Source: a virus (taxonomy: Duplodnaviria; Heunggongvirae; Uroviricota; Caudoviricetes). Taken from it: DNA of 24,564 nt. A program made the position numbers. This document shows positions 1 to 9,000 of this stretch, piece by piece (position 1 is the stretch's first letter; each line of letters opens with the position of its first letter). The DNA lies in IMG/VR virus record IMGVR_UViG_2740892233_000024. One strand, given 5' to 3'.

Positions 1-3000
1 TTACGCCTTCTTTATATCCTCCATAATTCCAGAGTGGGACATATTTGGGACATTATCACCAAAAATGTCGTCTATTTTCCTCGCATGCTCTGTCAAATGA
101 TTAGGCGCAAGGTGAGCATACCTACGAACCATTTCTATGGACTCCCATCCGCCCATTTCCTGAAGCACTGATAATGGGACGCCTGACTGAATCAGCCAGC
201 TTGCCCAGGTGTGTCTGAGGTCATGGAAACGGAAATCTTCAATTCCTGCACGACGACAAGCTGATAGCCATGATGTCTTGCTGTCGATGCGCATCTTCCT
301 GACCGCAGGCGTTGATGTTCCATCTGCTCGCTTAGCCGCCTTGGTATGTACAAACACCCATTTGTGATGCTTGCCTATTTGATCACGCAACACTTTACAG
401 GCGGTATCGTTCAGCGCCACACCAATGGCGCGGTTTGATTTGCTCTCTTCTGGATTCACCCAGGCAACTCGTCGCTGCATGTCGATTTGTTGCCATTCCA
501 GATTTATGATGTTCGACTTTCTCAGACCAGTTGCCAGCGCAAACTTGACGACAGATTTCAGTGGTTCGGGGCACTCATCAATAAGGCGTTTTGCTTCCTC
601 CTTTTCCAGCCATCTGACTCGCTTGTTTCTGACCGCTGGTATCTTGATGACAGGCGCTTTTTCCAGCCACTTCCAGTCGCGTTCTGCAGCACGGAGAATG
701 GCCTTTATCATGGCAAGATGCTTTGCCTTTGTCTGAGTTGATACTGGCTTTGGTTCATAAACAGGCGGTTCTTTACCTTTCCTGATGGCGGCCTGAACTT
801 TCTGTTTCCATATTTCTTTCGTCTTTCTGTTATGCATTCTGCTTACAGCAGAGTAAATCTTTGCCTCCGAGATATCTTTAAGCCTTATACCCTCAAAATG
901 TTCAAGCCAGAACTCAATCCGGCTTTTATCTGAATCGAGAGATTTTTTATCAGCTTTTTCCTCAAGCCATCTTAGGCAGGCCTCTTCAAAAGTGACATCA
1001 GGTAAATCCCCTAGCTTTTCTACTCGCCAGAGTTCTGCTTTTCGCTTGTCGTGCAACTCCTGAGCTTGCCGCTTGTCCTTTGTGCCAAGAGATTCCTTAA
1101 TTCGTTTCCCGCCCGGGAGCGAATACGAGGCATACCATATTTCATTTCTGCGGAAGAGTGACATTTTCTTTCCTCTGTTATGCCATCACCCGCGCTCACC
1201 TGGACAGTATGCAGCGGAGACTGAAGCGCCGCAATGCAGGCTTGCCGTGTTGTGAGGTAAGGAGATTTTGGCTTGGTTGGATCTTTACGTGTTGCCTGTA
1301 GGCGGCCTGTTCGTATCCAGTTGGTGGCGGTTGGTCTGGATATCTTAAGAAACTGACAGGCCTCATCGAGTGTGAGGCTGTATGATTCCATGGTTACCTC
1401 TGCTTTTTGAACGCATGTCACGTAACTTCTTAATGTGTTCTGCCGTTTCGATCTCTTCTGCTATCCGATCTGCATCAGCTTTATTCACAGGTTCAAAGTC
1501 ATGATTAAAGCGGAACATGCTGGCGATACATGTTCTGCCTTTTCGGATGTAGTGAACTTTGTTGTGGGTAGAACGCAGGATTTTGCAGGGAGTGCCGTGG
1601 TGGTCGACGTACCAGGTGTTAGGAAAAATGATTCTGAACATTTTTACACCTCAGTTGGACGATGTTGAAATTTGCTGCTTTGAGGCCATCACAGTCCCCA
1701 TTGTTTGTTCTTAAGTTCGATCTCCTCCTAGCAACTTGCACAAGTCCGACAACCCTGAACAGCCAGGCGTCTTCGCTCATCTATCGGATCGCCACACTCA
1801 CAACAATGAGTTGCGGATACAGTCTGGTAGTTCTGACGACGCATTTTTATTGCTGTATTGCGCTGTAATTCTTCGATTTCTGATGCTGAATCAATGATGT
1901 CTGCCATCTTCCATTAATCCCTGAATTGTTGGTTAATACGCTTGAGGATGAATGCGAACAATAAAAAAGGAGCCTGTAGCTCCCTGATGATTTTGCTTTT
2001 CATGTTCACCGTTCCTTAAAGACGCCGTTTAACATGCCGATCGCCAGGCTTAAATGAGTCGGTGTGAATCCCATCAGCGTTACCGTTTCGCGGTGCTTCT
2101 TTAGTACGCTACGGCAAATGTCATCGACGTTTTTATCCGGAAAATGCTGTCTGGCTTTTTTGATTTCAGAATTAGCCTGACGGGCAATGCTGCGAAGGGC
2201 GTTTTCTTGCTGAGGTGTCATTGAACAAGCCCCATGTCGGCAAGCATAAGCACACAGAATATGAAGCCCGCTGCCAGAAAAATGCATTCAGTGGTTGTCA
2301 TACCTGGTCTCTCTCATCTGCTTCTGCTTTCGCCACCATCATTTCCAGCTTTTGTGAAAGGGATGTGGCTAACGTATGAAATTCTTCGTCTGTTTCTACT
2401 GGTATTGGCACAAACCTGACTCCAATTTGAGCAAGGCTATGTGCCATCTCAATACTCGTTCTTAACTCAACAGGAGATGCTTTGTGCATACCGCCTCCCG
2501 TTTATTATTTATCTTCTCAGCCAGCCGCTGTGCTTTCAGTGGATTTCTGATAACAGAAAGGCCGGGAAATACCCAGCCTCGCTTTGTAACGGAGTAGACG
2601 AAAGTGATCGCGCCTACCCGGATATTATCGTGAGGATGCGTCATCGCCATTGCTCCCCAAATACAAAACCAATTTCAGCCAGTGCCTCGTCCATTTTTTC
2701 GATGAACTCCGGCACCATCTCGTCAAAACTCGCCATGTACTTTTCATTCCGCTCAATCACGACATAATGCAGGCCTTCACGCTTCATGCGCGGGTCATAG
2801 TTGGCAAAGTACCAGGCATCTTTTCGCGTCACCCACATGCTGTACTGCACCTGGGCCATGTAAGCCGATTTTATTGCCTCGAAACCACCGAGCCGGAATT
2901 TCATGAAATCCCGGGAGGTAAACGGGCATTTCAGTTCAAGGCCGTTGCCGTCACTGCATAAACCATCGGGAGAGCAGGCGGTGCGCATACTTTCGTCGCN

Positions 3001-6000: not shown

Positions 6001-9000
6001 CGCATACTTTCGTCGCGATAGATGATCGGGGATTCAGTAACATTCACGCCGGAAGTGAACTCAAAGAGGGTTCTGGCGTCGTTCTCGTACTGTTTTCCCC
6101 AGGCCAGAGCCTTAGCGTTAACTTCCGGAGCCACACCGGTGCAAACCTCAGCCAGCAGGGTGTGGAAGTAGGACATTTTCANNNNNNNNNNTCGGGGTTT
6201 TGCTATTACGTTGTGAATTTCTGAAGCTGTGATGACGCCGAGCCGTAATTTGTGCCACGCATCATCTCCCTGTTCGACAGCTCTCACGTCGATCCCAGTA
6301 CGCTGCAGGATAATGTCCGGTGTCATGCTGCCACCTTCTGTTCAGTGGCTTTTTGTTTCAGGAATCCAAGAGCTTTTACTGCTTCGGCCTGTGTCAGTTC
6401 TGACGATGCACGAATGTCGCGGCGAAATATCTGGGAACAGAGCGGCAATAAGTCGTCATCCCATGTTTTATCCAGGGCGATCAGCAGAGTGTTAATTTCC
6501 TGCATGGTTTCATCGTTAACCGGAGTGATGTCGCGTTCCGGCTGACGTTCTGCAGTGTATGCGGTATTTTCGACAATGCGCTCGGCTTCATCCTTGTCAT
6601 AGATACCAGCAAATCCGAAGGCGAGACGGGCACACTGAATCATGGCTTTATGACGTAACATCCGTTTGGGATGCGACTGCCACGGCCCCGTGATTTCTCT
6701 GCCTTCGCGGGTTTTGAATGGTTCGCGGCGGCATTCATCCATCCACTCGGTAACGCAGATCGGATGATTACGGTCCTTGCGGTAAATCCGGCATGTGCAG
6801 GATTCATTGTCCTGCTCAAAGTCCATGCCATCAAACTGCTGGTTTTCGTTGATGATGCGGGACCAGCCATCAACGCCCACCACCGGAACGATGCCGTTCT
6901 GCTTATCAGGGAAGGCGTAAATTTCTTTCGTCCACGGATTAAGGCCGTACTGGTTGGCGACGATCAACAATGCGATGAACTGCGCATCGCTGGCATCACC
7001 TTTAAATGCCGTCTGGCGAAGAGTGGTGATCAGTTCCTGTGGGTCGACAGAATCCATGCCGACACGTTCAGCCAGCTTCCCTGCCAGCGTTGCGAGTGCT
7101 GTACTCATCCGTTTTATACCTCTGAATCAATATCAACCTGGTGGTGAGCAATGGTTTCAACCATGTACCGGATGTGTTCTGCCATGCGTTCCTGAAACTC
7201 AACATCGTCATCAAACGCACGGGTAATGGCTTTTTTGCTGGCCCCGTGGCGTTGCAAATGATCGATGCATAGCGATTCAAACAGGTGCTGGGGCAGGCCT
7301 TTTTCCATGTCGTCTGCCAGTTCTGCCTCTTTCTCTTCACGGGCGATCTGCTGGTAGTGACGCGCCCAGCTCTGAGCCTCAAGACGATCCTGAATGTAAT
7401 AAGCGTTCATGGCTGAACTCCTGAAAATGGCTGTGAAAATATCGCCCGCGAAATGCCAGGCTGATTAGGAAAACAGGAAAGGGGGGTAGTGAATGCTTTT
7501 GCTTGATCTCAGTTTCTGTATTAATATCCATTTTTTATAAGCGTCGACGGCCTCACGAAACATCTTTTCATCGCCAATAAAAGTGGCGATAGTGAATTTA
7601 GTCTGGATAGCCATAATTGTTTGATCCATTTTTCGGGACTCCTGGCTGATTAAGTATGTCGATAAGGCGTTTCCATCCGTCACGTAATTTACGGGTAATT
7701 CGTTCAAGTAAAGATTCGGAAGGGCAGCCAGCAACAGGCCACCCTGCAATGGCATATTGCATGGTGTGCTCCTTATTTATACATAACGAAAAACGCCTCG
7801 AGTGAAGCGTAATTGGTATGCGGTAACGCCGCGCTCAGGCGGCTTTGATAGTCATATCATCTGGATCAAATATTCCTGATGTATCGATATCGGTAATTCT
7901 TATTCCTTCGCTACCATCCATTGGAGGCCATCCTTCCTGACCATTTCCATCATTCCAGTCGAACTCACACACAACACCATATGCATTTAAGTCGCTTGAA
8001 ATTGCTATAAGCAGAGCATGTTGCGCCAGCATGATTAATACAGCATTTAATACAGAGCCGTGTTTATTGAGTCGGTATTCAGAGTCTGACCAGAAATTAT
8101 TAATCTGGTGAAGTTTTTCCTCTGTCATTAAGTCATGGTCGATTTCAATTTCTATTGATGTTTTCCAGTCGTAATCAATGATGTATTTTTTGATGTTTGA
8201 CATCTGTTCATATCCTCACAGAAAAAAATCGCCCTCACATTAGAGGGCAAAGAAGATTTCCAATAATCAGAACAAGTCGGCTCCTGTTTAGTTACGAGCG
8301 ACATTGCTCCGTGTATTCACTCGTTGGAATGAATACACAGTGCTTACTCGTACTAATAAAATACCCAATTTTCTGTTTCTTGGTTGTGTCCAAAGTTATA
8401 TTCAATATCTGGTGTTGATGTATCAATATTTTTCATCCCATCAACAAGAGTTGATACAACAGCCAAATCTTGTTTTATTCTCATTAAATGGTATTTCTTC
8501 CGGCGCAATAAACTTTCAATAGCAAGTTTCTTCGTTGGGAATGCAAAAGATCTTTCTGCATTTTTTGCTACTTTCTTAATTGCATATCTATTTCTCCTTT
8601 GTTTCCATTCCTGTAACCACTGATTTGGTGCTGGTTTAAAATTAACAATCCAATGCGCAGGAACCAACCATGCATAATGCTCTGTCTGATGAAAAGCTAT
8701 ATATTGAAGTGCGAATATTTTTATCCCATCTTCTTCAACTGTCGCCTGGAATCTCCAGAAAACAGGCATTCCATCATGTTCAGTTTCTGATTCAGGAAAA
8801 GGTACGCTCCATGATTTTGTCATATCTCACCTCAAATAAGTGGTTTGCTGTCTAATTTCATTTTCTGGCGACCAACACAAGTCACACCCATTTCACTGCG
8901 TGGCTTGCGGTAGTAAAGATTGTGCCTGTCTTTTAACCACATCAGGCTCGGTGGTTCTCGTGTACCCCTACAGCGAGAAAAATAGTAAAATCCTCTTACC

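Follow-up and report, generated by a model that had tools for sequence, protein, structure and literature searches.

The window analysed here, a stretch of 24,564 nt, is the final 24,564 nt of the record CCPX01000146.1 (GCA_000752875.1) and is split into ten contigs by nine runs of exactly 10 N. Contigs 1-4 belong to the left arms of two lambdoid prophages, referred to below as A and B, and the features relevant to the present analysis are the following.

1-2999: contig 1, left arm of prophage A at tRNA-Arg (argU)/intD, ending within exo at a scaffold gap (genome mapping)
1-1164, minus strand: intD-type tyrosine integrase gene adjoining tRNA-Arg (Pfam Phage_integrase, 160 bits; RefSeq intD)
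1363-1641, minus strand: DUF4222 gene of prophage A (Pfam PF13973, 69 bits)
1712-2999: copy 1 of the repeat, comprising the exo-xis block in prophage A from the TraR/orf73-like gene to the 3' part of exo (alignment)
1728-1907, minus strand: TraR/DksA (lambda Orf73-like) gene, 59-codon nonsense allele (Pfam zf-dskA_traR, 29.8 bits)
2006-2221, minus strand: hypothetical gene at the orf61 position, copy 1 (RefSeq CDS at L004 22006-22221; no Pfam match)
2298-2489, minus strand: DUF1382 gene at the orf63 position, copy 1 (Pfam PF07131, 106 bits)
2462-2644, minus strand: DUF1317 gene at the orf60a position, copy 1 (Pfam PF07026, 130 bits; RefSeq CDS)
2641-2999, minus strand: lambda-type exonuclease gene of prophage A, 3' portion (only positions 90-149 of the Pfam YqaJ profile)
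3000-3009: scaffold gap of 10 N joining prophage A (inside exo) to prophage B (just upstream of xis); its flanks lie 2.5 Mb apart in strain 11368 and 1.9 Mb apart in strain 01_3327
3010-3387, 3398-5833 and 5844-6181: contigs 2-4, left arm of prophage B (mapping to NC_013361.1)
3529-3825, minus strand: DUF4222 gene of prophage B (Pfam; RefSeq annotation)
3846-4196, minus strand: DUF551 gene of prophage B (Pfam; RefSeq annotation)
4193-4798, minus strand: Ead/Ea22 gene of prophage B (Pfam; RefSeq annotation)
4795-5016, minus strand: TraR/DksA (Orf73-like) gene, 73 codons, full length (Pfam zf-dskA_traR, 35.3 bits; RefSeq WP_000763358.1 at the matching place in strain 11368)
4821-6016: copy 2 of the repeat, comprising the exo-xis block in prophage B (alignment)
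5753-6326, minus strand: exonuclease gene of prophage B with two N gaps within it (maps to L005 22746-23423)
6323-7108, minus strand: bet, RecT family (Pfam RecT, 116 bits)
7114-7410, minus strand: gam (Pfam Gam, 217 bits)

Pairwise alignment within the window revealed 94.8% identity between 1712-2724 and 4821-5833 (1013 nt, ungapped, offset 3109) and 98.3% identity between 2828-2999 and 5845-6016 (172 nt, offset 3017), while the counterpart of the intervening 103 nt of copy 1 (2725-2827) is hidden in the N gap of copy 2 at 5834-5843. The repeat is far above chance, and its overall identity of 95.3% bears out the original prediction, in which a value of about 95% had been estimated by eye. The recurrence of 1730-2999 at about 4841-6110, as proposed there, holds up as a repeat with slightly shifted coordinates, copy 2 stopping at 6016. 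Both copies encode on the minus strand, in this order, YqaJ/exo, DUF1317, DUF1382, a small ORF and zf-dskA_traR, that is, the gene order of the lambdoid exo-xis region downstream of pL. We take DUF1317 to be orf60a and DUF1382 to be orf63, based on position. What the two copies share is the exo-xis block conserved in lambdoid phages (orf73/TraR, orf61, orf63, orf60a, exo). In lambdoid and Stx phages this block has been defined as orf60a-orf63-orf61-orf73-ea22 between exo and xis (PMC8614690, PMC4195576). The window resembles these phages in the gene order beside exo, in the presence of DUF1317 and DUF1382 at the orf60a and orf63 positions and in a TraR/DksA zinc finger at the orf73 position. 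Ea22 comes next in prophage B, as in the known block, whereas prophage A lacks ea22 and passes from orf73 directly to DUF4222 and then int; there is otherwise no departure.

The surroundings of the two copies agree only in part with what had been read from the sequence. Copy 1 does adjoin int, as supported by Pfam and the RefSeq intD annotation, but the xis assigned to the same place is represented in the RefSeq annotation only by a 66-nt partial HTH pseudogene. For copy 2, Pfam supports the neighbouring Ea22, DUF551, bet and gam genes, but the exo described as intact is not so in the window, where 102 nt and 22 nt of it are hidden in gaps: the N run at 5834-5843 breaks copy 2 and the next one, at 6182-6191, also cuts its exo. 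In L005, exo of prophage B is uninterrupted, with 678 nt of coding sequence and the complete YqaJ domain. Likewise, strains 11368 and 01_3327 as well as L008 carry a full-length exo of prophage A (681 nt), and its cut in the window is a contig end, not biology, with copy 1 terminating exactly at the first N run, 3000-3009.

The two TraR-like ORFs have 59 codons in copy 1 and 73 in copy 2, exactly as predicted, and both exceed the PF01258 gathering cut-off of 24.9 bits for the C4 zinc finger (29.8 and 35.3 bits). Both start with MADIIDSA, which fits the acidic DxxDxA motif (D3-I-I-D6-S-A8), a hallmark of the TraR/DksA family (PMC8614690). In length (~73 aa), DxxDxA motif and C4 zinc finger they are akin to lambda Orf73 and F-plasmid TraR, regulators acting through the RNA polymerase secondary channel (PMC9239242, PMC6970531), whereas the copy-1 allele ends after residue 59. 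The difference is due to a single base: position 1730 is A in the window and G in strain 11368, changing codon 60 from CAG to TAG, and it is the sole difference from that strain across 2999 nt. Residues 60-73 are present in copy 2, and copy 1, which stops at codon 60, would lack the C-terminal helix through which TraR touches the beta lobe-Si1, as judged from the register with TraR residues 58-73 and not from a structure of its own. In 01_3327, whose genome is complete, the 59-codon form carries the annotation WP_033809264.1; in all, 4 of the 5,426 complete genomes have this form. It is a genuine lineage-specific single-base nonsense allele of prophage A, unrelated to any duplication. A natural Orf73/TraR allele apparently devoid of this helix is a mildly useful by-product of the analysis, since it could serve to test the role of the helix.

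Mapping to finished genomes directly separates the two copies. Contig 1 matches NC_013361.1 (strain 11368) at 612093-615091 with one mismatch and NZ_CP074961.1 (strain 01_3327) at 4247700-4250698 with 100% identity, the TAG codon included. Contigs 2-4 are each 100% identical to, and colinear with, NC_013361.1 3134244-3137509 (L005 20001-23266). In strain 11368, pieces of the window thus match three prophages: A at 0.61 Mb (tRNA-Arg/intD), B at 3.13 Mb (beside yfaA) and a P22-like one at 3.29 Mb. In 01_3327, contig 1 lies at 4.25 Mb and the B-specific arm, again at 100%, at 2.37 Mb; across complete genomes of the O26:H11 type, A and B are 1.9-2.5 Mb apart. In both 11368 and 01_3327, therefore, pieces that adjoin each other in the scaffold map to different loci of one finished chromosome, perfectly apart from the base at 1730 in 11368. 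Of the two explanations offered in the original prediction, co-resident prophages accordingly proved to be the right one: the copies map to two different lambdoid prophages on the same chromosome. Two segment versions 95% identical to each other could also enter one assembly from a mixed or contaminated culture, in which two strains with one prophage each are co-assembled. Yet both versions occur at 100%, at two loci, in many individual complete genomes (11368, RM10386, RM8426, 01_3327 and others), so that no mixture is needed, and we regard this as the least probable of the readings considered here.

The other explanation, a tandem duplication, is rejected; it depends on the adjacency of the copies, which had been taken as real with the N runs overlooked. 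The window is a scaffold, and the sole link between the copies is the 10-N gap at 3000-3009; no continuous sequence connects them. Masking by a software tool was also considered as a source of the N runs and was ruled out, because they occur in the public record CCPX01000146.1 and replace 12, 102 and 22 nt rather than 10, these being the lengths concealed by the gaps at 3388-3397, 5834-5843 and 6182-6191 relative to the NC_013361.1 reference. The breakpoints follow a simple arithmetic, which can be read directly from the contigs. At contig ends 2999, 5833 and 22745, the last 64 nt are in each case repeated exactly elsewhere in the window, with a different base in front; contig end 6181 lies 64 nt past an A/B mismatch. 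Contigs 4 and 5 start exactly on an A/B mismatch, and subtracting 64 from the exact-run lengths of 166 and 86 gives the hidden 102 and 22 nt. Contig ends at 2999, 5833, 6181 and 22745 are thus set by exact repeats with a constant overhang of 64 nt, the expected product of a de Bruijn assembler with k=65, although the k value and the assembler type are not documented and we infer both.

The combined arrangement is likewise absent elsewhere. No single place in any of 5,426 complete E. coli genomes or 50,697 phage records covered >=80% of region 1-6181. A pattern spanning the junction had no match in viral contigs, nor did a 40-mer with the TAG codon in genome contigs; it was the 59-aa protein that led to the source scaffold. 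Of the rest of the window, 3010-24564 is present in one place in no complete genome (best 57%), and neither is contig 6192-17329 (best 82%). Among 24 contigs carrying the 59-aa TraR allele, read from public assemblies, 23 have the layout exo-bet-gam-KilR, and the two-copy layout is confined to the source scaffold. One of the 23, L008, which was displayed and checked, is identical to 1-2999 and then continues along the course of prophage A into full exo-bet-gam. No independent assembly among these genomes, phage records and allele-bearing contigs thus shows a tandem duplication.

The most plausible interpretation, to which we assign a probability of about 93%, is that the window is not one unbroken chromosomal stretch but the end of a draft scaffold, assembled from short reads of an O26:H11-like polylysogenic E. 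coli, in which two prophage arms ~2 Mb apart have been joined by scaffolding, without any tandem duplication. The two copies are the exo-xis blocks of two resident prophages, A and B, whose left arms differ distally and converge on a nearly identical exo-bet-gam module. A de Bruijn assembler would have broken the contigs wherever an exact run shared by A and B exceeded k. The scaffolder, probably faced with two arms pointing into one shared sequence, may then have strung the pieces together with 10-N spacers in the order A arm, gap, B arm, shared module; the exact way in which it was misled is our inference. What speaks against an artefact is that some read pairs presumably led the scaffolder to this join.

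If the join were instead real, exo of prophage A would, in one strain, have received by insertion or fusion the prophage B left arm from immediately upstream of xis onwards, yielding a composite prophage in which two exo-xis blocks are directly oriented. Such an order is what the public scaffold presents, lambdoid prophages of EHEC are mosaic and recombining, and two orf73-like genes have been reported in phage 933W (PMC8614690). The junction itself, however, consists of unsequenced N, and a novel junction would be unique sequence that should assemble through, whereas contig 1 halts exactly 64 nt into an exact A/B repeat. Moreover, mid-exo and the sequence upstream of xis have no homology through which they could recombine, the layout is found in 0 of the 5,426 genomes and 0 of the 50,697 phage records, and the arms are 1.9 Mb apart in the closest complete relative (01_3327). 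A composite of this kind is therefore very improbable, although it is only parsimony and the breakpoint signature that exclude a rearrangement peculiar to the source strain. Slightly less probable again is its full consequence, a real join at 3000-3009 creating a composite prophage A with the B arm inside exo and with two TraR alleles, both under pL-type control, of which one lacks the C-terminal helix. Homologous recombination between A and B was rejected as an origin of the layout, because it would yield one hybrid copy per locus and not a partial exo followed by a fragment from upstream of xis.

Joining of separate prophage arms by scaffolding, the interpretation preferred here, matches known cases of false tandem duplication by serial scaffolding of graph branches in the N spacer at the join, in contig ends lying k-1 into exact repeats, in short redundant contigs around the gaps and in a layout absent from finished genomes. 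It differs from the usual case in the nature of the branches: instead of two haplotypes, they represent paralogues from two prophages within a single haploid genome. The biological background is that of polylysogenic EHEC/EPEC such as O26:H11 strain 11368, in which several resident prophages carry near-identical early-left modules; the pieces are concatenated in the window and separate in the complete genome. Several resident lambdoid prophages with a 95-98% identical exo-xis/red module are already well known, and in the two-copy feature we see commonplace biology combined with an artefact of scaffolding. The case serves as a caution that paralogous prophage pieces can be chained, in draft scaffolds from polylysogenic E. 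coli, into apparent tandem duplications, truncated genes (here exo) and chimeric 'prophages', and that N runs in such records should be treated as contig ends.

In further support of joining by scaffolding, the same pattern, with a paralogue on either side of a gap, recurs at 17330 and at 22.6-23.8 kb of the window.

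Self-comparison of the window defined a direct repeat of two blocks: positions 1712-2724 match 4821-5833 (1013 nt, 94.8% identity, no indels, offset 3109) and positions 2828-2999 match 5845-6016 (172 nt, 98.3% identity, offset 3017). Pairwise alignment of the two segments gives 95.3% identity overall, in agreement with the ~95% estimated by eye in the original prediction. The coordinates given there are slightly off: copy 2 ends at 6016 and not at 6110. The offset shifts because positions 2725-2827 of copy 1 (103 nt) have no counterpart in copy 2, and these 103 nt are 'missing' because copy 2 is interrupted by an N gap at 5834-5843. 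The TraR-like ORFs have the lengths previously assigned to them, 59 codons in copy 1 (1728-1907, minus strand) and 73 codons in copy 2 (4795-5016, minus strand). According to Pfam, zf-dskA_traR, DUF1382, DUF1317 and YqaJ (lambda exonuclease) follow each other in the same order in both copies, and the arm carrying copy 2 also has Ead/Ea22, DUF551 and DUF4222, followed by RecT (bet) and Gam. The repeated segment corresponds to the conserved exo-xis block of lambdoid/Stx phages, comprising orf60a, orf63, orf61, orf73 and ea22 (PMC8614690; PMC4195576). The product of orf73 is homologous to TraR; it binds RNA polymerase and reprogrammes transcription in the host (PMC9239242). That several prophages of a single EHEC/EPEC genome carry near-identical versions of the block is ordinary; a search of complete E. 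coli genomes with positions 1-6181 retrieved up to 12 matching places per individual genome.

Nine stretches of exactly ten N interrupt the window (starting at 3000, 3388, 5834, 6182, 17330, 22746, 23127, 23297 and 23620) and divide it into ten contigs. The first gap begins right where copy 1 stops (2999|3000), and copy 2 is broken by the gaps at 5834-5843 and 6182-6191. A search of public assemblies for the 59-aa TraR protein led to the source record, CCPX01000146.1 (GCA_000752875.1; 64,732 nt). Masking by a tool could be rejected, because the locus fetched from this record is identical to window positions 1-11907, N runs included; the Ns are therefore scaffold gaps of the deposited record. 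By coordinates, the window represents the final 24,564 nt of this scaffold. Its end (24564) coincides with the scaffold end at position 64,732, so that the 'prophage' is cut within the lysis region by the assembly.

The contigs were mapped to 5,426 complete E. coli genomes. Contig 1 (1-2999) is present whole in 639 of the 5,426 genomes, with one mismatch in the O26:H11 strain 11368 (NC_013361.1, 612093-615091) and 100% identity in strain 01_3327 (NZ_CP074961.1). In these two strains it forms the left end of a prophage located beside tRNA-Arg with intD (prophage A), which continues unbroken beyond contig 1 through a full 681-nt exo, bet, gam, a KilR-type gene and an S24 repressor. Contigs 3010-3387, 3398-5833 and 5844-6181 all align colinearly, each at 100% identity, to NC_013361.1 3134244-3137509. 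This stretch is the left arm of another prophage (prophage B), whose own int and xis adjoin yfaA and a DUF1175 gene. In the reference, 12, 102 and 22 nt occupy the places of the three gaps; hence, the joins within the B arm are correct, though unfilled. The A and B loci are separated by 2.5 Mb in strain 11368, and in strain 01_3327, a perfect match for both parts, copy 1 maps to 4.25 Mb, whereas 2.37 Mb is the position of the B-specific arm (3398-4800). The layout of 1-6181 was found in one place at ≥80% coverage in none of the 5,426 complete genomes and none of the 50,697 phage records. Matches at 72% were rejected as examples of the combined layout, as they span only ~3.3-4.6 kb and represent prophage B with the query repeat mapped onto it twice. 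Thus, of the two readings proposed originally, co-resident prophages are borne out by the mapping of the copies to separate prophage loci in finished genomes. A tandem duplication is rejected, given the absence of the combined layout from the complete genomes and phage records searched and breakpoints that carry an assembler signature.

This signature emerged when prophages A and B of strain 11368 were compared base by base. In copy-1 coordinates, exact runs shared by A and B include 2661-2826 (166 nt), 2936-3023 (88 nt) and 3101-3186 (86 nt), and the contig boundaries are positioned as follows.

Contig boundaries relative to A/B differences (copy-1 coordinates)
2999: end of contig 1, 64 nt past the last A/B mismatch (2935 + 64)
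Equivalent of 2724: end of contig 3, 64 nt past an A/B difference (2660 + 64)
2827: start of contig 4, on an A/B mismatch
Equivalent of 3164: end of contig 4, 64 nt past an A/B difference (3100 + 64)
3187: start of contig 5, on an A/B mismatch

The hidden stretches have the corresponding lengths, 102 nt (166 − 64) and 22 nt (86 − 64). In the window, each of the contigs that end at 2999, 5833 and 22745 closes with 64 nt that have an exact second copy, at 5953, 2661 and 22833, respectively, and the preceding base differs each time. A de Bruijn graph with k=65 yields just such contig ends, which always reach 64 nt into an exact repeat: nodes would be written from the first unique base to k−1 bases into the next repeat, and repeat nodes would be dropped. 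We infer the assembler from this pattern; a literature search found no paper describing the assembly. Contig 1 thus stops because A and B were no longer distinguishable to the assembler, and not at a biological junction. The sequence of a real exo'|xis' junction would occur only once, and the assembly would have run across it.

The side-by-side layout most likely arose as follows. The strain has two or more lambdoid prophages, with left arms that are unlike in their distal parts (int, xis remnant and DUF4222 in A; xis, a 114-aa ORF, DUF4222, DUF551 and Ea22 in B) but converge on a 95-98% identical block, from TraR to exo-bet-gam. This gives a graph with two branches entering shared sequence. 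Each repeat node went to one of the branches; contig 1, for instance, kept the 166-nt run, and contig 4 the 88-nt run. Presumably, read pairs of the two prophages tied either arm to one set of downstream contigs, which the scaffolder put in a row as A arm, 10 N, B arm and shared module. We conclude that scaffolding produced the adjacency of the two copies, the truncation of exo in copy 1 and its interruption in copy 2, with a residual doubt of a few per cent. The finding is useful as a caution that, in windows of this kind, a run of N marks a contig end.

Owing to its rarity, the 59-aa TraR allele can be used as a lineage marker. Among 24 contigs read that encode it, 23 have the layout int, DUF4222, TraR59, small ORF, DUF1382, DUF1317, full exo, RecT, Gam and KilR, and only the source scaffold has the two-copy layout. 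A contig with the former layout (GCA_051141195.1) matches window 1-2999 exactly and then continues as in prophage A of strain 11368: the first 24 nt past 2999 equal window 6017-6040, followed by A-specific differences at 3024, 3043, 3049, 3091 and 3100.

The allele results from base 1730 (A versus G in strain 11368), the sole difference across contig 1, which changes codon 60 from CAG to TAG (Q60, window 1728-1730). It is real: the finished 01_3327 genome contains it, with the annotation WP_033809264.1. The TAG allele occurs in four of 5,426 complete genomes, including O55:H7 DEC5E, 01_3327 and 03_3013, and the 59-aa TraR in 225 blocks of the public assembly collection. Decay of a duplicate was rejected as its origin; it is a point mutation in prophage A. 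The 59-aa protein retains the DxxDxA motif and all four cysteines. Judging by register with TraR, it would lack the C-terminal helix (residues 58-73), which in TraR contacts beta lobe-Si1 (PMC6970531). Loss or change of function is plausible.

Upstream, positions 1020-1421 encode a 133-aa ORF with an HTH_17 (excisionase-type) match, overlapping the integrase gene by 145 nt. RefSeq annotates no more than 66 nt here (window 1326-1391), classed as a partial HTH pseudogene, so that prophage A may be without a functional xis. A 53-nt part of this ORF (1329-1381) recurs at 89% identity at 3013-3065, the start of the B arm.

The 11-kb contig 6192-17329 follows prophage B of strain 11368 up to ~8725 and, from ~8851, a third, P22-like prophage (NC_013361.1, 3.29 Mb; ERF, anti-RecBCD, sieB type), switching within 8726-8850, 125 nt identical in both prophages. 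The whole contig was not found in any one of the 5,426 complete E. coli genomes (best, 82%), and may be either chimeric or a rare recombinant. Positions 16954-17013 (60 nt) recur at 97% identity at 17341-17400, directly past the gap 17330-17339, and are a further example of the serial placement of paralogous contig ends. The same behaviour is seen across 22614-23803, where a segment lying upstream of the holin gene occurs in several variants (90-96%), which probably stem from several prophages: at the end of contig 6, in the short contigs 22756-23126 and 23137-23296, and at the beginning of contig 10. The final 64 nt of contig 6 are an exact copy of 22833-22896. The first 4 kb of contig 6 (17340-21357) have a sole match of 81 nt to prophages A, B and C of strain 11368 and may represent cargo or a moron. 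Matches of other genomes to 3010-24564 name products that may lie there: an LpxR lipid A deacylase, a SASA-family esterase and a DUF6645 protein.
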